Origin: a virus
IMG/VR virus record: IMGVR_UViG_3300033178_000167
Span: 1 to 29,012 of that record
Direction: 5' to 3' (one strand)
DNA length: 29,012 bases
The number at the start of each line of letters is the position of its first letter. Position 1 is the first letter of the stretch. A model generated the notes under the pieces. The model was not told the origin of the DNA and ran no database searches. It saw nothing but the letters and a program-made list of their open reading frames with translations. Below, piece after piece: positions 2,316-19,984 of the stretch. The position numbers and the translations under genes are program-made.

Positions 2316-3089
2316 TTATTTATAAATTTCTTCAAAAACAAGATCATGGACTATTTCAGCAGATAAGGGGTCTTCATATAGATTTAATGATTTTTGGTGC
2401 CCCTTGATTACGATATAAGAACGCCAACACCTTTTTTCCGGATCCATTTTTTTGATATATGTGGTTCCTGTAAATCCAAATAGGCCGTTTCCCCTTTTGG
2501 AAAGCCCATATTTTTTCCTGGCATCTTCGGATCGGGTTTTACCCTTATTACTAATACTTAATTTTTTGCGTGTGCTTTTTGAAGGAGATACCCCATAAAA
2601 TGGATTATTTTCTCCTTTTTTAGCTTCACTCATCTTTTTACAGGTTTCTTTAGATAATTTTCTACCCATAAGTGATTCACTTATCTTTTTACGGGTTTCT
2701 GTTGAGTGAAATTCCCCATACATCCCATGACTTTCGCCACTATTTTTTAAACTAATTTTTTGTTTAGTTTCTGGAGAATGTTTCCCATTTGCCCCTCCAC
2801 TTTGAAAGTTATATCCTTTAGAATGGTTTAAACAATCATAATAAGTAATATAGGCTACTTCAAGCTCATCCAACGTTTTTTTATCTGTGGCATAATTTAA
2901 AACAATAAATTTAAAATTAGATTCACCATATTTATTAAAAGCATTCTGTAAATGAAAGTTTGCATGCCTTCTATTTTTTAAATTATAAAAATGATGATAT
3001 TTCCTAAGGCAGGGGTTTGAAGTTGTCAACCCAATATAAATCTTACCGTTCACCAGATTTTCTATTTTATAGATATATCCATATACCAT
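2316..3089 (-). CDS. Free-standing GIY-YIG homing endonuclease 1 (GIY-YIG + NUMOD3-like repeats + AP2-like C-terminus)
   Basis: GYIYKIENLVNGKIYIGLT, HFYNL, HANFHLQNAFNKYG, ELE, GYN motifs. Five HS.ET.KK.S...G repeats. C-terminal GFTG...WRSYI...LNLYEDPLSA. True start MVYGY at 3089 with an AGGAG SD; the track extension to 3182 is the RNA leader. Confidence 0.9.
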   Translation of the reverse strand: MVYGYIYKIENLVNGKIYIGLTTSNPCLRKYHHFYNLKNRRHANFHLQNAFNKYGESNFKFIVLNYATDKKTLDELEVAYITYYDCLNHSKGYNFQSGGANGKHSPETKQKISLKNSGESHGMYGEFHSTETRKKISESLMGRKLSKETCKKMSEAKKGENNPFYGVSPSKSTRKKLSISNKGKTRSEDARKKYGLSKRGNGLFGFTGTTYIKKMDPEKRCWRSYIVIKGHQKSLNLYEDPLSAEIVHDLVFEEIYK

Positions 3090-3184
3090 ATTTTTTAACT
3101 CCTTTAGATTCACGCCCTTAACTCCTACTTTTACGCCTTTGTGATAGGCGTGGTGAGGAGTGGAGTTAAGAATACTCCTCACAC
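3090..3184 (-). ncRNA. Structured 5' leader, copy 1 (alternative-pseudoknot translational switch)
   Basis: P1 3182-3174/3161-3153. Loop CUUAACUCC is complementary to 3125-3117 and, over 8 nt, to the SD region 3102-3095. P2 3151-3146/3138-3133, with alternative partner 3116-3111. Covaries with the 9033-9126 copy. Confidence 0.75.
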
Positions 3185-3207
3185 AAGATAATATATGAAC
3201 TTTAAAG

Positions 3208-4225: not shown

Positions 4226-4567
4226 TCACCTTCTCATCGGATCATAATCTAAATGTCTTCGGTCAGGAACACTCCTACCAGATAAATACAAACTCCCATA
4301 ACTAGCATAATAATGATGAAATGGGCCAATAATATGACAATAACGATTCTCAAACGGGTAACTGATTTGTTCCCTACCAGCAACATAAGCCGGGGGACCA
4401 CTTAATACAAGTCCGCATCCTTTGCAGACTATTTCATCCCGTATTAGGTCATGTTCAAAGTTACTATGGTGTGTGTCACACTCTGGACACTGCGTGTGTG
4501 TAATTAGTTTAATGGTGTCGTTTACAGTTTCTAAGCCTTCATCTAAACTTATATTTGTTTCTTCCAC
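4226..4567 (-). CDS. TFIIB/TFB-type zinc-ribbon protein (no cyclin folds)
   Basis: CPECDTHHSNFEHDLIRDEIVCKGCGLVL matches the TFB N-terminal ribbon pattern CPxC...D..RGE.VC..CG.V. Confidence 0.65.
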   Translation of the reverse strand: MEETNISLDEGLETVNDTIKLITHTQCPECDTHHSNFEHDLIRDEIVCKGCGLVLSGPPAYVAGREQISYPFENRYCHIIGPFHHYYASYGSLYLSGRSVPDRRHLDYDPMRR

Positions 4568-6427: not shown

Positions 6428-6580
6428 TCACCCTTTCACCCCCTCAGTCGTGGTTTGTTGTAGTGTCCAACACGACAAGTGATATATTTCCTTAGAGGTA
6501 TGGTCATATTTGAATCCCCGATTATCACTGGATGGGAGTATGAATACTTTTTCCCGACAGATAGGACAAACATCACTCAT
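6428..6580 (-). CDS. Zn-finger microprotein, paralog A (50 aa)
   Basis: MSDVCPICREKVFILPSSDNRGFKYDHTSKEIYHLSCW...; paralog at 9317..9472. Confidence 0.65.
   Translation of the reverse strand: MSDVCPICREKVFILPSSDNRGFKYDHTSKEIYHLSCWTLQQTTTEGVKG
6433..6527. repeat. Direct repeat 2A (95 bp, 91/95 identical to 9328..9422)
   Basis: Manual alignment, 4 mismatches. Confidence 0.9.
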
Positions 6581-7364: not shown

Positions 7365-7625
7365 TTATTCCCCCTCTAAAATATCCATAAAATCAAGCAA
7401 TGATTGATAATAACCCTTAAACAACTGGAATGGAGCATCACGATTAAATATTAAGTGATCCCTAAGCTTATCCCATTTCTCTTTATAATTATTATTTTTA
7501 TCAAGCCCATATATTTCAATGGCAATATCAAAACCATCATTTCTACCTTGGATATATGCCTCTTCTTTTTGTCTTGCCACTTCTTTTTTAAACCATTCGC
7601 ATATTTTATCATCCATTCTAATCAC
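7365..7625 (-). CDS. Hypothetical protein
   Basis: 86 aa; start overlaps the ERCC4 stop. Confidence 0.7.
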   Translation of the reverse strand: MIRMDDKICEWFKKEVARQKEEAYIQGRNDGFDIAIEIYGLDKNNNYKEKWDKLRDHLIFNRDAPFQLFKGYYQSLLDFMDILEGE

Positions 7626-7698
7626 CTCTCAAAATAATATTCCTTAATGTTATTTGCTTTGCGTTCTCCTATCCCATCCACACTCATCAAATCCTCAA
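7621..7698. repeat. Direct repeat 1A (78 bp, 72/78 identical to 9704..9781)
   Basis: 3' end of the ERCC4 gene (HhH motif); 46 bp perfectly identical. Confidence 0.9.
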
Positions 7699-8263
7699 CC
7701 GTGGTTTTACATAACTCTATAATACTATCAACCCCCAAAACATCTATAATCCTCTTAGAATACTCCAACCCAATCCCAGGAATACAACTAACCATAGCCT
7801 CTAAAACATCCCCATCACTAACAGCCAACCTCCTAACCTTATCTAAATGTTTAAGTGAACCATCACTTTTCTCCATCAATGCCTTTGACAAGGTGAAAAA
7901 ATCCCTATTAGAATCAACATTAAACACTGGGATTTTATACCGTGCCGATATACTCGCACATGCCCCTAAAAACTGTTTCCGAGTGAAAGAAGTGTGTTTC
8001 ATAACCTCTTCTTCATCAAAACGTCCAACAATAATTAAGTAAGGGTGTTGGTAATTTTCAATCATATTCTGCAACTGAACCCATAATCTCCCCATAACGG
8101 AAGATATAAAATCTTCTACTGTTTTCCTTTCACAGCAAACGCTGTTAGTGGGGTAAACCAAATCTCCAACAGGCAACATTGTAACCTCCCCTGTTGAAAA
8201 AGTTTTAAGAAATAATTCTTTAATATGAGAGGGTTCTCTAGAATCTAAGAACACATTACTCAT
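7622..8263 (-). CDS. ERCC4/XPF-family structure-specific nuclease with (HhH)2
   Basis: DSRE, VGDL, ERKT..DF..S...GRL..QL motifs; IPGIG and VDGIG HhH motifs. Confidence 0.9.
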   Translation of the reverse strand: MSNVFLDSREPSHIKELFLKTFSTGEVTMLPVGDLVYPTNSVCCERKTVEDFISSVMGRLWVQLQNMIENYQHPYLIIVGRFDEEEVMKHTSFTRKQFLGACASISARYKIPVFNVDSNRDFFTLSKALMEKSDGSLKHLDKVRRLAVSDGDVLEAMVSCIPGIGLEYSKRIIDVLGVDSIIELCKTTVEDLMSVDGIGERKANNIKEYYFER

Positions 8264-9032
8264 ATAATGCCCCCATAACTAAATCATGAACTATCTCAGC
8301 ACTTAATGGATCATTGAAATACCCCAAATGTTTATTACGGCCATTATAGTGAATATGAGATCGCCATGGTATGTTTTCGGGATTAAGATCCTTCCTAAAG
8401 TGAGCACCAGTAAAACCAAATAACCCCTCTCCTCGTCGAGTTATACTCATCTTTTTGATGATGTCGATGGGACGTTTTTTACCATAATACGGATGTTTTT
8501 CACCAGAAAGATTGGGACGTTTTTTACCTTTTTTGGCTTTGCTAATTTTATTACGAGCGGCTTCACTTAATTTTTTGCCATAAATTGGAGCCAGTGGTCC
8601 CCTTTTCCCATACATATGGTTATTTTTACCAGAATGGGCCTTGCTCATGTTCTTACGAGCTTTTAGGGATGCCTTTTTACCTTTTCGGGCTTTGCTAATT
8701 TTCTTACATGTTTCTTCTGAATGTTTCCCATTAGCTCCCCCTCTTCGAATGTTATATCCATTTTTATCATTCAAACAATCATAGGAATTAATATAATCCT
8801 CTTCTAATTTATCAAGAACCCTTTTAGAAGTAGCGTATTTTAGAACAGTGAATTTAAAATTAGATTTGCCATACTTATTAAAAGCATTTTGCAAGTGTGA
8901 ATTGTTATGCTTATTATTTTTTAATTCACATAAATGGTTTGATTTGCGTTTATATGGGTCTTGGGTTGTTTGACCAATATACACTTTACCATTTAGGGTG
9001 TTCACTATTTTGTAGATATATCCATATACCAT
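8256..9032 (-). CDS. Free-standing GIY-YIG homing endonuclease 2 (GIY-YIG + NUMOD3-like + AP2-like)
   Basis: GYIYKIVNTLNGKVYIGQT, HNNSHLQNAFNKYG, GYN; same architecture as 2316..3089. True start MVYGY at 9032 with an AGGAG SD. Confidence 0.9.
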   Translation of the reverse strand: MVYGYIYKIVNTLNGKVYIGQTTQDPYKRKSNHLCELKNNKHNNSHLQNAFNKYGKSNFKFTVLKYATSKRVLDKLEEDYINSYDCLNDKNGYNIRRGGANGKHSEETCKKISKARKGKKASLKARKNMSKAHSGKNNHMYGKRGPLAPIYGKKLSEAARNKISKAKKGKKRPNLSGEKHPYYGKKRPIDIIKKMSITRRGEGLFGFTGAHFRKDLNPENIPWRSHIHYNGRNKHLGYFNDPLSAEIVHDLVMGALYE

Positions 9033-9126
9033 ACTACCTGACTCCTTAAATTTAACTCCCTTTGACTCTGATTGCACCCCATGATTGGAGTTAGGGAAGA
9101 GCGGAGTCAAAGAACACTCCTCCCTA
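9033..9126 (-). ncRNA. Structured 5' leader, copy 2 (alternative-pseudoknot translational switch)
   Basis: P1 9126-9116/9102-9092. Loop CUUUGACUCC pairs with 9068-9060 or with the SD region 9045-9039. P2 9091-9086/9081-9076, with alternative partner 9059-9053. Confidence 0.75.
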
Positions 9127-9145
9127 GTTAATATATTGTGTGAAC

Positions 9146-9154
9146 TTATATACA
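9146..9154 (-). promoter_or_regulatory. TATA box of the GIY-YIG 2 cassette
   Basis: TGTATATAA about 20 nt before the leader; the AAGTTCA..ATATATTA spacer is shared with copy 1. Confidence 0.55.
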
Positions 9155-9165
9155 TACTTTTCCCC

Positions 9166-9324: not shown

Positions 9325-9472
9325 CGGCTTTCACCCCCTCAGTCGTGGTTTGTTGTAGTGTCCAACACGACAAATGATATATTTCCTTAGTTTTATGGTC
9401 ATATTTGAATCCCCGATTATCAGCGCTGGGGAGTACGTGTACGGGTGTTTGGCAGATAGGGCAGTTATTCAT
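9317..9472 (-). CDS. Zn-finger microprotein, paralog B (51 aa)
   Basis: MNNCPICQTPVHVLPSADNRGFKYDHKTKEIYHLSCW... Confidence 0.65.
   Translation of the reverse strand: MNNCPICQTPVHVLPSADNRGFKYDHKTKEIYHLSCWTLQQTTTEGVKADV
9328..9422. repeat. Direct repeat 2B
   Basis: Copy of 6433..6527. Confidence 0.9.
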
Positions 9473-9708
9473 TTAATCCCCTCTTTTAAATTAATAAACA
9501 TGTAGTCTGGGAATTTGAATTGATCTACTTCTAATACTTCAAGCCCAAATACTTCTTTACCGTCCCAATATTTTTCAATCCCCCTCATCCCCGTTTCAAC
9601 GGTTTTATAAAAATCAGATCTGATTAAAACAGTGTTGTACCTTGAATAACTTTTAGCAACATCTTGGTAAAACATCTCAAACTGATCACAATCTTGCATC
9701 CGTATCAC
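9469..9708 (-). CDS. Hypothetical protein
   Basis: 79 aa; begins MIRM like the gene after ERCC4. Confidence 0.7.
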   Translation of the reverse strand: MIRMQDCDQFEMFYQDVAKSYSRYNTVLIRSDFYKTVETGMRGIEKYWDGKEVFGLEVLEVDQFKFPDYMFINLKEGIK

Positions 9709-9781
9709 CTCTCGAAGTAGTATTCTTTAATGCTGTTTGCTTTGCGTTCTCCTATCCCATCCACACTCATCAAATCCTCAA
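9704..9781. repeat. Direct repeat 1B
   Basis: Copy of 7621..7698. Confidence 0.9.
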
Positions 9782-10515: not shown

Positions 10516-10551
10516 CCTCCTATTTTATTAAATAATCAAATATTTTTAATA

Positions 10552-10782
10552 TTGTAACTTTGTAACTTTGTAACTTGGCTAAAAACGTAACCAATTTGTA
10601 ACTTTGTAACTTTGTAACCTGGGGATAACACTCTCTTTTTTTTATACCCCCCCCTCTCTCCCCACCCAAGTTACAAATCACAAACACAATAATCCACTCC
10701 TTAAACATTTTTTAACACCCTCAAAACTCCTAGTTTGTAACCTGTCGGATCAGGTTACAAAAAGTTACAACTCAAGTTACAA
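10552..10782. repeat. Iteron-like TGTAAC repeat cluster, putative replication origin
   Basis: Two triplets of 8-bp tandem TGTAACTT-type units (10553-10574, 10597-10618), inverted GTTACA copies (10670, 10754, 10764, 10776), an 11-bp IR at 10734-10761 and a polypyrimidine tract between the clusters. Confidence 0.7.
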
Positions 10783-13417
10783 CCTCATCCTCTAACCCTT
10801 TTTGTTCATCTGTTTCGGTTTGATACAAAAAGTTAATAAAATTTTTTAAAGGTATCTTAATAACCTTGGTTGGTTTATCAAACCTAACAGCCTGGTATTT
10901 CCACCCCATTAATTCAGCAATCCCTTTCAACGGTTGACATACCTTCAATTCCTTATGTACTTCTTTTTTAAACCCGGTTGTTAAACAGACATATTGATTG
11001 TTCTTTGATTCTATCGGTATCATCCAAGGTATTAATCGTTCATTCAGCACACTCCACACCTTTTCTTTGAAATTCTTACTTTCTTTGAGTTTAGATGTGT
11101 AATTATCCAAGTCTTTGGGCTTCCCATCCACTTCATCAATTACTTGCACCCGACCATAAGCCTTGTTAATACATTCCAAGAGGAATATTCGCACCTCTTC
11201 ACGGTGTTCCTCATCCATATCCTCCATACTCTCAGACCGGCTCCAACCATAGATCCAATTATCAGGACGAACCCCTGCCTCATAATACACCCTTGTAACC
11301 AGAGTATCACAAAGTTCCTTCCATTCCATTTGTAACAAATCAGGGTTTTCCATGAACTCTTTAATCACAAATTGGCTGATGGGTTTTAAGAGGTTGAATT
11401 TGCACCGTTTATGGTTTTTAGTCTGCCATTCATCCTCAAACGCATCTACTTCTTTTTGAGTTTTCATTTCACTGTGGGTGAAATTGAGAATGATAAACCT
11501 TCTAACCAGTGCATCGTCATCAGGTACAAATAGGTTTGCGGTGAAAATGACTGGAGCATAAGCGGGTATGTTTCTGAACCTTCGGCCTTCATATCTTCCC
11601 CGGCCTGTTGGTCTTTCTATTGCTCCTTTTATCATTTCAGTTACGCTTACCCGGCTAAATGCTCCTGCAGGTTCATTGACTACTACTGGGAATGTGGATT
11701 GACTGATTCTATTACCTACTCTTGCAACGGTGTCAAACATCCCCCCTGTTAAGTCAGTGTCAGGGGTGGGTTCATCCCATAAATATAGGACCATTTGGCC
11801 TAGTGTGGATTTCCCACTTTTAGCCTTCCCATACAAATAAAGCCAAGGAGCCCATGTTCCTAGTTGTTTCATACTGTAAATGAATGGGCTGATAAGTCCC
11901 CATTTAAAAATAGTAGCTATCTTTGTTTCATGGCCCTCGAATGAGTGTCGTAAGTCATCTAATACTTTAAGTGCTTGTTGAAGTTCATCGTTTGGGGGCT
12001 CGAAGGTTTCATATTTCACTGTGATGATTTTGTTGGTTTCTGGAGTGTAAAAGAATCCTGGAGTTTCAATATCTGTTTTTATCTCAGCATATTGTTCCCG
12101 GATCATTTTATTCATAATAGCAGGTAAACAGTCATTTACCATACGGTTGTTGATTACATGCCCTGATTCGATTAAATCGTTTTTAATGTCATCTAATAAG
12201 TCGGGGCCTGTTTTGATTGGTCGTGGGCTGTTATGGGTTTGCCATAGTATCTCAAATTTACGGGGTTCGTCTTCTAATGGGCTGTCAAAGATTATCACTT
12301 CGGAGGGGTAAGCTTCTATCACCGTTTTCTCTGTTGCTATTACCTTATCCCCAGTGTATTTTTCTTTTACGTGGATTATGCTTTTTTTGTCTTGGTTTGC
12401 TACGAATAGTTCGTTTGTTCCGATTCTGGCTGTTAGCATTCCATAGTGGATTGGTTTTTCTATGATGTCATTGATTTCTCGTTGTATGGTTTTGAACATA
12501 TCTTGATCTGCTTGTTTTTCAATGGTTTCATATAGGCCACTTGCCCCTTTTAACTCAGTGTCTGGGAGGGTGTTGTTGTATGTGCGGTGGAGGACTTGGA
12601 TTCTTGCAGACATCCCGTCTTCATCATCATGGCTTAATCGTTCTATTAATAATTGTGCTGATGATTCTTTGATCCCCTCTTTTTTCATAAACCCTGACAA
12701 TGAATAAATTATATCATTCCTGTATGATTCCCGATAGAATGGTTTTAAAAGAGTTATAATGTGGTCAATATCGGATTCAGATAATTCACGGTCTGAATTA
12801 ACATTATTAGATTTTCTGTTGGATTTATATGTCTTGTCTTTCTTAAAATCAGATTTTAATGGTTTCAGTTGGTGTTTAACCCACATTACCCCATCTTCAA
12901 CAGTTAGGATGGGTTTATCCTGGTAAACAGTGTATGGTTCTTTGGTTTCAGGATGTATGCTTGGGGGAATTACAGTGTAACTTCCTTCATGCCCCCTTAT
13001 CTCTATTTTATCAATAGGATAATCTTTTTTAGTACCAACCGGTTTTTCTGAATATATGTAAACATGAAATCCTCTTCCAGACTGGATAATCAATGTTTCA
13101 ACATCTTCAAAGTATTGTAAAAATGAAGGGTCATCCAGATCCACTTGAGTTAAATACAATCCTTCTCCTAAACTATCTCCTAATATAACTCCAAGGTTTC
13201 CCTTATATCCTTTTAACAACCCACGAGGATACATAACACTTTGATATTTTTTCCATTTGTAGTCCTCTGGTTTATTTGGAGAGGGATTGGTTAATTTGAA
13301 ATTGTATTTTTTTGATAATGGTTTTAGGGGGATGATATTGCAGTTGTAAAATTGTTTGGGGATTAATTTAATGGAGGCTTGTTTTTCTGTTTGAGTTTTT
13401 TCTGTTTGAGTTTTCAA
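10772..13417 (-). CDS. Bifunctional primase-polymerase (AEP Prim-Pol + PriCT-like) fused to a P-loop helicase
   Basis: QVDLDD, SGRGFHVY, EIRG..SYTVIPPSIHP (Prim-Pol); YR..YRND.IYSLSG (PriCT-like); LYGKAKSGKST Walker A. Confidence 0.85.
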   Translation of the reverse strand: MKTQTEKTQTEKQASIKLIPKQFYNCNIIPLKPLSKKYNFKLTNPSPNKPEDYKWKKYQSVMYPRGLLKGYKGNLGVILGDSLGEGLYLTQVDLDDPSFLQYFEDVETLIIQSGRGFHVYIYSEKPVGTKKDYPIDKIEIRGHEGSYTVIPPSIHPETKEPYTVYQDKPILTVEDGVMWVKHQLKPLKSDFKKDKTYKSNRKSNNVNSDRELSESDIDHIITLLKPFYRESYRNDIIYSLSGFMKKEGIKESSAQLLIERLSHDDEDGMSARIQVLHRTYNNTLPDTELKGASGLYETIEKQADQDMFKTIQREINDIIEKPIHYGMLTARIGTNELFVANQDKKSIIHVKEKYTGDKVIATEKTVIEAYPSEVIIFDSPLEDEPRKFEILWQTHNSPRPIKTGPDLLDDIKNDLIESGHVINNRMVNDCLPAIMNKMIREQYAEIKTDIETPGFFYTPETNKIITVKYETFEPPNDELQQALKVLDDLRHSFEGHETKIATIFKWGLISPFIYSMKQLGTWAPWLYLYGKAKSGKSTLGQMVLYLWDEPTPDTDLTGGMFDTVARVGNRISQSTFPVVVNEPAGAFSRVSVTEMIKGAIERPTGRGRYEGRRFRNIPAYAPVIFTANLFVPDDDALVRRFIILNFTHSEMKTQKEVDAFEDEWQTKNHKRCKFNLLKPISQFVIKEFMENPDLLQMEWKELCDTLVTRVYYEAGVRPDNWIYGWSRSESMEDMDEEHREEVRIFLLECINKAYGRVQVIDEVDGKPKDLDNYTSKLKESKNFKEKVWSVLNERLIPWMIPIESKNNQYVCLTTGFKKEVHKELKVCQPLKGIAELMGWKYQAVRFDKPTKVIKIPLKNFINFLYQTETDEQKGLEDEVVT

Positions 13418-19111: not shown

Positions 19112-19984
19112 TCACGTCCTGCCGTCGTCTGAATTTATCCACGCCTCGTCGATAACCACCGGCTTAGCATAACTACTGCACCAGTAACTCCCAATACTGT
19201 AATCACTACTTGCAGCCGCTGCTAAATCCACATTAACCCAGTTACTCCCCAATTCTTTACCACGGACTTTTAAAATGATATGCCCTCCAGATTTGCAGGT
19301 TACACGGCAATAAAGGGCTTCGTAGTCCATGTCTTCGGCCACTGCTTTCCCTAACTGGCTGTGGTCGGTGCAGTTGAGGGGTTGGTTGTTTGCTAAGCGT
19401 TGAATCTCTTGTTGTTGGTTATATATATCGTTATAGTATCCCTGCCATGTTTTTGCTTTGATTCGGTTATAATACTCGGTGAAGGTGTTATAGGTGCCTA
19501 CGGCTTTTTCCACGGCTTGGTGAAATGGTGTTTTATTGGTTTGGAATAGGTTGTAGAGTGTTACATAGTTCGGTAGTGCTTTGTTTTCATGGTACCATGC
19601 TAATACACGGCTAAAAGTGTATATAACATCATAGAATGATAGTTGTCCATATTTAGTGGTGTAAAGTGTTGGAGCATAACCATTACCCTTTATGAAGTTG
19701 TTAATCTCCTTGGCTAATTGGACGTAGTCCTGTTTTTGTAGTTGTGCCCCATCCTGGATATTACCGTTTATTTGTAGGGGGTTGGGGTAACTATCAGTGA
19801 GTATATCAAGTGGTTTGGGCTTAGTTAGTTCAACAACACTCGCACATACCATCCTGAGAAACGAAGCCCGGTTCACCTGCACGCCACCAATTGTGATTAA
19901 TTCTGGTAGGTATTTGTTTCCTTGTATGAAGTTCCGGACATCTACACTTGCCTTTGCCACTTCGGTTATTGTTTTAGTTGTTAT
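19112..19984 (-). CDS. pei: Pseudomurein endoisopeptidase (PeiW/PeiP-like endolysin, peptidase C71) with N-terminal pseudomurein-binding repeats
   Basis: PMB-like repeats (V.NFI..N..LP..I.I; I.NFI..NG.AP; LAWY..N..LPNYV). Catalytic YYND...LNCTD.SQL...GH.IL.V.G.EL...VD (C197/H227/D245 counted from the track GTG at 19960). Start probably ATA at 19984. Confidence 0.88.
   Translation of the reverse strand: MTTKTITEVAKASVDVRNFIQGNKYLPELITIGGVQVNRASFLRMVCASVVELTKPKPLDILTDSYPNPLQINGNIQDGAQLQKQDYVQLAKEINNFIKGNGYAPTLYTTKYGQLSFYDVIYTFSRVLAWYHENKALPNYVTLYNLFQTNKTPFHQAVEKAVGTYNTFTEYYNRIKAKTWQGYYNDIYNQQQEIQRLANNQPLNCTDHSQLGKAVAEDMDYEALYCRVTCKSGGHIILKVRGKELGSNWVNVDLAAAASSDYSIGSYWCSSYAKPVVIDEAWINSDDGRT

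Follow-up and report, generated by a model that had tools for sequence, protein, structure and literature searches.

The locus raises the question of whether the leader in front of a viral homing-endonuclease gene can fold in two ways, and whether the choice between the folds sets how much nuclease is made. Only for a few T4 genes is it understood how selfish nucleases are restrained so as not to harm their carriers. The leader lies on the minus strand of the window, which is the whole 29,012-nt stretch of IMG/VR virus record IMGVR_UViG_3300033178_000167 that was analysed. An earlier note on this DNA had described an RNA in which a hairpin loop and an adjacent strand could dock on either of two tandem modules. 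Comparison of 20 leaders suggests that the element is probably an RNA that acts in cis, as the 5' leader of homing-endonuclease genes in Methanobacteriales viruses and proviruses, and gates translation initiation at these genes. Since both folds are kept by selection, the leader most likely gates the amount of nuclease.

Leader anatomy and the two folds

The copy 1 leader is about 95 bases long. The elements listed in the earlier note (TATA box, P1, P2, linker, repeats, SD and AUG) are each found at the minus-strand position given there, and all copy 1 features below are on that strand. The TATA-like box TTTATATA (3215-3208) belongs to an archaeal-type promoter with an A-rich BRE-like stretch upstream. 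A second conserved AT box, CATATATTATC (3187-3197), lies between the TATA box and P1 and looks promoter-proximal. The P1 hairpin (3153-3182) has a 9-bp stem and a 12-nt loop. Its arms are GUGAGGAGU (3182-3174) and ACUCCUCAC (3161-3153), and the loop is AUUCUUAACUCC (3173-3162). The loop segment PKa, CUUAACUCC (3162-3170), is a putative mimic of the anti-Shine-Dalgarno (anti-SD) sequence and is complementary to both the decoy and the SD flank. The selector strand P2a, CACGCC (3147-3152), can take a local or a distal partner. In the local pairing (P2), ACGCCU (3151-3146) pairs with AGGCGU (3138-3133) around the loop AUCACAA. The local partner P2b (AGGCGU, 3133-3138) opens module 1, which continues with a 7-nt linker (3132-3126) and the decoy repeat PKb1, GGAGUUAAG (3125-3117). 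The decoy pairs with the P1 loop (PK1) and has no conserved start codon behind it. Module 2 opens with P2b' (GGCGUG, 3116-3111), the distal partner of P2a (P2', 3152-3147 with 3116-3111), which is followed by a spacer. The SD element PKb2, GGAGUUAA (3102-3095), consists of GGAG and the flank UUAA and also pairs with the P1 loop (PK2). The AUG of the copy 1 gene is at 3089-3087. The tandem duplication of the 3' half is borne out, modules 1 and 2 being tandem duplicates.

The TATA box keeps a fixed position relative to P1 across the aligned leaders. A TTTA(T/A)ATA-like box is found at -33 to -26 from the P1 start in 17 of 17 aligned leaders, and a ATATATTA box at -15 to -5 in every one. With the usual archaeal TATA-to-start spacing, the transcription start is predicted 0-4 nt before P1, at about 3183-3186, so that the whole leader would be transcribed. 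The second AT-rich box (-15 to -5) could in principle give transcripts that start inside the loop. The AT box upstream of P1 (AUAUAUUAU) is also complementary to the start codon region (AUGGUAUAU) over 8-9 bp including G·U (3188-3196 with 3081-3089 in copy 1; 9128-9137 with 9024-9033 in copy 2), and RNAfold uses the copy 2 helix. On upstream read-through transcripts this helix could add a T4-like occlusion of the start site; the complementarity may equally be an accident of (TA)n-rich sequence. P1 was also considered as an intrinsic terminator of the upstream gene. Archaeal termination uses oligo-T, and this role is ruled out by the lack of a T-run after P1.

The order of the elements is P1a, loop (PKa), P1b, P2a, P2b, link1, PKb1, P2b', link2, PKb2 (SD) and AUG. 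The PK helix crosses P1, which makes an H-type pseudoknot with a hairpin inside the long connecting loop. Both modules share one build: a partner for P2a, a linker of 4-14 nt and a partner for the loop, and in module 2 the SD stands 4-8 nt before the AUG. In the ON fold, P2 and PK1 form and the SD is single-stranded. In the OFF fold, P2' and PK2 form, module 1 is looped out and the SD is paired. The two helix sets are mutually exclusive, and each has covariation of its own. A mixed structure of PK1 and P2' is topologically strained in the model because PKb1 and P2b' abut. The 3-nt L1 that would have to span an 8-9-bp helix is tight.

The P1 hairpin (30 nt) occurs once in the window, and none of 100 shuffles contains it. 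The folding energies themselves are modest (MFE z-scores of -2.0 and -2.4); therefore, the argument for more than chance pairing rests on the homologs. RNAfold gives competing nested folds, which is what would be predicted of a multi-state RNA. The energies of the two states were compared with a nested proxy at 37 °C, in which P1 is common to both states, its 3' arm is kept unpaired and the stereochemistry of P1 and the PK helices is ignored. The difference of OFF minus ON in this proxy has a median of +0.5 kcal/mol over the 20 leaders (range -6.1 to +7.1) and lies within 3 kcal/mol in 11 of them, suggesting that the two folds are nearly isoenergetic. The sign of the difference varies: some leaders favour ON by 2-7 kcal/mol and others favour OFF by 5-6.

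Covariation among homologous leaders

The 20 leaders fall into about 6 clades and comprise both window copies, copies on metagenome and IMG/VR contigs, and 3 copies in Methanobacteriales genomes. Protein-guided searches of IMG/VR, metagenomes and a large protein collection yielded 13 further leaders, in front of GIY-YIG genes that are 45-60% identical to those of the window. DNA pattern scans of IMG/VR added L247 and L248. L251, L255 and L252, which are 3 copies in 2 cellular genomes, came from a search with covariance model R1 against 151 genomes that share their order with a Methanobacteriaceae MAG. With R1, no additional copy turned up elsewhere in the window or among about 100 other endonuclease loci. 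Weak covariance-model matches at L174, L198, L176, L178, L253 and L254 were rejected as chance; L253 lies inside a purD-like gene. Close GIY-YIG homologs at L233 and L234 are without the leader. One copy-1-like leader (L232:515-630) lacks about 6 nt around the normal AUG, and its SD/AUG arrangement is lost. The open reading frame there starts with an AUG directly 5' of the second GGAGUU box, and the loop would pair with codons 2-3. This leader may be a decaying or re-tuned copy.

The window has a G+C content of 34-42%. It encodes a pseudomurein endoisopeptidase (Peptidase_C71/Pei with a pseudomurein-binding repeat, PMBR; 19112-19960, minus strand), and on this gene content the host of the virus is assigned to Methanobacteriales. 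The occurrence of the leader in Methanobacteriales genomes agrees with this order.

Elements were located in each leader with the loop as the anchor, ungapped pairings were extended from it, and the helices were tabulated from these anchors (Python). MAFFT and covariance-model alignments place the copy-2-like rows one column off register for P2', and the decoy indel is unalignable in them. Because of this register shift P2' is undercounted in the tool count (80.9% paired). RNAalifold recovers only P1. This helix is paired in 134 of 135 cells (99.3%), with changes on both sides at 8 of the 9 pairs and up to 4 pair types per position. For P1, the tool count on the covariance-model alignment gives a concordant result, as does RNAalifold. 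The arms of P1 thus keep their complementarity and not their sequence.

The P1 loop is nearly invariant, UUCUU(U)RACUCC. It forms 8-10 bp with the decoy (PK1) in 20 of 20 leaders, and 7-9 bp with the SD and its 3' flank (PK2) in 19 of 20. Three independent changes of the loop can be traced. Position 5 went from A to G in the copy-2 clade and from A to U in L251 and L255, and position 4 went from A to G in L252. For each change the complement stands in the decoy and in the SD flank alike (20/20 leaders). Loop column 5 contains 13 A-U, 5 G-C and 2 U-A pairs, and column 4 contains 19 A-U pairs and 1 G-C pair. There is also a compensatory indel, in which an additional loop U is matched by an additional decoy A.

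The two alternative partners of P2a can be told apart by the columns that only one helix uses. The local helix spans positions -4 to +1, and P2b is paired in 93% of cells. The distal helix spans -5/-6 to 0, and P2b' is paired in 98.9% of cells in the anchor-based tables. Column +1, which is used only by P2, has U-A, U-G and A-U pairs. Column -5, which is used only by P2', has C-G, U-A and A-U pairs, and column -4 has A-U and G-C. Between L239 and copy 2, an A-U pair is exchanged for U-A solely in the distal helix; the local partner has a non-pairing U at that place. Copying of module 1 onto module 2 therefore cannot account for the distal complementarity. In L241 the compensation at column -4 is also distal only.

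When the 3' partners were shuffled among sequences (n=2000), the observed pairing was never reached for P1, P2 or P2', and was reached once each for PK1 and PK2. The shuffles ignore relatedness, and with about 6 clades of homologs the independence is overstated; for this reason the weight is put on the count of independent events. The covariation of these leaders indicates that the five helices exist and that selection acts on both alternative pairings. The check proposed in the earlier note, covariation in further homologs, thus gave a positive result for all five helices across the 20 leaders, and the architecture it described, with the loop and P2a docking on either of two tandem modules of which the second holds the SD, has pairing-specific covariation for each alternative.

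The covariation bears on several other readings of the leader. In one of them a single fold does the work. Either the leader would simply be a pseudoknot that sequesters the SD through the P1 loop, together with P2', and module 1 would be a remnant of the duplication or a passive tuning element, or the decoy fold alone would work and the SD match would be left over from the duplication. This agrees with the tandem origin of the modules, with the wide drift of the ON/OFF energy balance among homologs, and with a link1 that varies in length and sequence. However, module copying does not explain helix-specific compensation in both alternatives (L239 and column -4 of L241 in the distal helix; column +1 in the local one), and the decoy tracks every loop change in 20/20 leaders. 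A single functional fold is unlikely.

Quite unlikely, too, is another role at the RNA level, such as a 5'-terminal hairpin that stabilises the mRNA, a site of processing or a landing place for an RNA-binding factor of the virus. Stabilising hairpins typically sit where P1 does, at the predicted 5' end, but such a role leaves unexplained why the SD flank, 3-4 nt past the GGAG, tracks three independent loop changes and why P2b' is complementary to P2a.

The leader could also be a DNA-level element. The motif occurs twice in direct and once in inverted orientation, and these copies would then be protein-binding sites, such as an autorepression operator, a mimic of the homing site or a junction at which the mobile cassette recombines. 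An operator that resembles the homing site is what I-TevI uses to repress its own promoter (PMC2988022), and the leader adjoins a promoter and moves with the cassette. The pairing is strand-specific, however. The helix cores contain 515 Watson-Crick, 24 G·U, 2 A·C and 7 other cells, and the excess of G·U over A·C is expected of a sense-strand RNA and not of DNA motifs or antisense RNA. The conservation of complementarity without sequence in the P1 arms also speaks against a DNA element, as does the finding that endonucleases whose DNA-binding domains differ have nearly the same leader. This reading is highly improbable.

A coding role, as an N-terminal endonuclease extension or a uORF, has practically no probability and is ruled out by frame shifts among homologs and by in-frame stops. 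Of the first 15 leaders, 9 have an open frame upstream of the AUG, both window copies and L001 among them, and some database proteins include the extension. However, the distance from loop to AUG leaves a remainder of 0, 1 or 2 modulo 3 in the homologs, 6 of the first 15 leaders have 1-5 in-frame stops, and the conserved blocks are in different frames in copy 1 and L001. In the short form the GIY motif falls at residues 4-9, the usual place in this family. Several database proteins are thus wrongly extended through the leader. Gene calls with an extension of 26-49 residues include window 8256-9155, L001:1405-2232, P0011, P0014, P0020, P0026, P0032, P0037 and P0039. Judged from the sequences, the true start of the extended endonucleases is the AUG before (M)VYGYIYKI or MTEIYGYIYKI.

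Proposed mechanism and comparison with known systems

In the proposed two-state mechanism, the P1 loop would act as the anti-SD mimic and the adjacent P2a as a selector. With P2a and the loop docked on module 1, the decoy, the SD would be free and the mRNA translatable. With both docked on module 2, the SD would be buried in the pseudoknot helix and the mRNA closed. Since the decoy is transcribed before the SD module, the nascent RNA should fold into the open state first, and would then partition towards the closed state. The modules share their docking strands, so the exchange can go by branch migration. The final mixture would depend on the small difference in energy and on ribosome capture, and the nuclease output per transcript would be capped.

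The balance between the folds may be set in several ways. There is nearly an even chance that no dedicated effector is involved and that kinetic or thermodynamic partition and ribosome capture are sufficient. A trans-acting protein or RNA is also a credible cause, at somewhat less than even odds. Temperature or a small ligand is not very likely. The linker and P2-loop motifs of the viral clades are lost in the provirus clade, linkers and P2 loop differ between clades in length and sequence, and few unpaired nucleotides are conserved, which argues against a pocket for a metabolite or other ligand. The features of a metabolite riboswitch were not found: there is no invariant unpaired pocket, and the gene downstream of each of the 20 leaders is a homing endonuclease.

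A more specific proposal is an effector-responsive switch, in which some factor of the virus or the host, be it a protein, a small RNA or the endonuclease itself, would attach to the free module, flip the folds and time nuclease synthesis in the course of an infection. This is possible but doubtful. If it were true, archaeal viruses would have in the leader their first known family of cis-regulatory RNA switches. The window also encodes a small protein with a TFIIB-like zinc ribbon (4226-4567, minus strand). Its product may be a viral transcription factor and, as such, a candidate trans-acting regulator.

The leader matches no Rfam family, in agreement with the earlier note, which had not recognised it as a known RNA and had suggested this check. 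The whole window has no match in Rfam 15 at gathering thresholds. At E <= 10, the region around copy 1 and five leader loci give only chance snoRNA and miRNA matches. The int-alpA family (RF02996; 71 positions, threshold 35.8 bits) has no match in the window even at E <= 10 and is absent from the cmscan lists of L140, L141, L247, L241 and L244.

The closest parallel in the literature is found in T-even phages, where endonuclease genes (I-TevI, I-TevII, I-TevIII, segB and Aeh1 mobE) have RNA hairpins that sequester the ribosome-binding site (RBS) (Edgell, Gibb & Belfort 2010, PMC2988022). These T4 hairpins are simple and local. The structure contains a late promoter, and for this reason the hairpins form only on long transcripts of early or middle type (PMC2988022). 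As in the leader, a cis RNA structure pairs with the SD of a selfish nuclease gene and presumably keeps a toxic enzyme scarce. The leader differs in that the whole structure lies downstream of its predicted promoter, a hairpin loop 60 nt upstream pairs with the SD to give a pseudoknot, a complete decoy module competes with the SD module, and the host is archaeal. A local SD hairpin of the T-even kind was not found by RNAfold.

The translational operator of E. coli rpsO (S15) is an equilibrium between a pseudoknot and a double hairpin (PMC3985624). It resembles the leader in having alternative RBS-proximal folds of similar stability, one of them a pseudoknot, whose balance decides translation. 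By contrast, the rpsO pseudoknot is trapped on the ribosome by the protein that the gene encodes, and rpsO has neither a duplicated decoy module nor any sequence similarity to the leader.

The preQ1-II and SAM-II/SAM-V riboswitches are H-type pseudoknots with an embedded hairpin that sequester the SD. They have the topology of the leader: a stem 1, a loop strand whose 3' partner segment contains the SD, and a hairpin set into the long connecting loop. These riboswitches bind a metabolite in a conserved pocket, whereas the leader has few conserved unpaired nucleotides, a built-in decoy competitor and no Rfam match. The MS2 maturation gene and hok mRNA have kinetically controlled leaders in front of toxic or low-copy genes. 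Type I toxin mRNAs are kinetically controlled and encode a toxic gene (PMC11228461). In these systems, as proposed for the leader, the order of transcription and slow refolding set the opening of the RBS and limit a harmful protein. Their nascent RNA is usually inactive, or is briefly active through a small metastable hairpin or later processing, whereas the nascent fold of the leader would be open and held by the decoy repeat. The leader is set apart by its second selector helix and its archaeal-virus origin. Since P2a has two partners, whole modules would be exchanged.

Genes behind the leader and other features of the window

The copy 1 gene (2316-3089, minus strand) encodes a 257-aa endonuclease with GIY-YIG (Pfam E-value 4.3e-07) and NUMOD3 (3.5e-25) domains. 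The copy 2 promoter and leader are at 9030-9154 on the minus strand and match the covariance model with E = 3e-28. The copy 2 elements, all on the same strand, are the TATA-like box (9154-9147), P1 (9126-9116 with 9102-9092; loop 9115-9103), P2a (9093-9087), P2b (9081-9076), the decoy (9068-9060), P2b' (9059-9053), the SD (9045-9037) and the AUG (9032-9030). The copy 2 gene (8256-9032, minus strand) encodes a product 46% identical to that of copy 1. Pfam finds GIY-YIG and NUMOD3 in both window genes, which identifies them as GIY-YIG homing endonucleases.

The leader travels with its own BRE/TATA promoter as a cassette. The genes behind the 20 leaders encode a GIY-YIG endonuclease in 17 cases, an HNH_3+AP2 protein in two (L247 and L252) and a classical HNH/zinc-ribbon protein in one (L255), and no gene of another kind was found among them. 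A clean endonuclease swap behind one leader (L245 against L248) was considered and ruled out, because the 94% identity reaches well into the open reading frame. A third homing-endonuclease-like gene in the window, a classical HNH gene (PF01844; 5002-5817, minus strand), has an upstream region without such a leader. A related HNH gene in a Methanobacteriales genome (L255) does carry the leader. The IMG/VR relative of the L247 HNH gene (L250) is without it, and nothing recognisable as a leader trace was found in the N-termini of the HNH homologs.

The promoter and the putative two-state leader would form a portable archaeal cassette that serves three endonuclease families. The leader would be a translational control element for archaea, where very few cis-regulatory RNAs are known. 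Selection that is visible on each conformer separately would also make it a clean natural model for the design of bistable RNAs and for co-transcriptional folding.

The window has several other features. An ERCC4/XPF-type nuclease with HhH motifs is encoded at 7622-8263 (minus strand). Two pairs of direct repeats flank the copy 2 region: 6433-6568 and 9328-9463 (136 nt, 85% identity), and 7608-7698 and 9691-9781 (91 nt, 88% identity). They resemble a duplicated segment that carries small zinc-ribbon genes and the start of a gene. Tandem TTGTAAC(T) repeats are found at 10544-10622, just downstream of a Prim-Pol/helicase-like gene (10772-13417). These repeats are iteron-like and may mark a replication origin.
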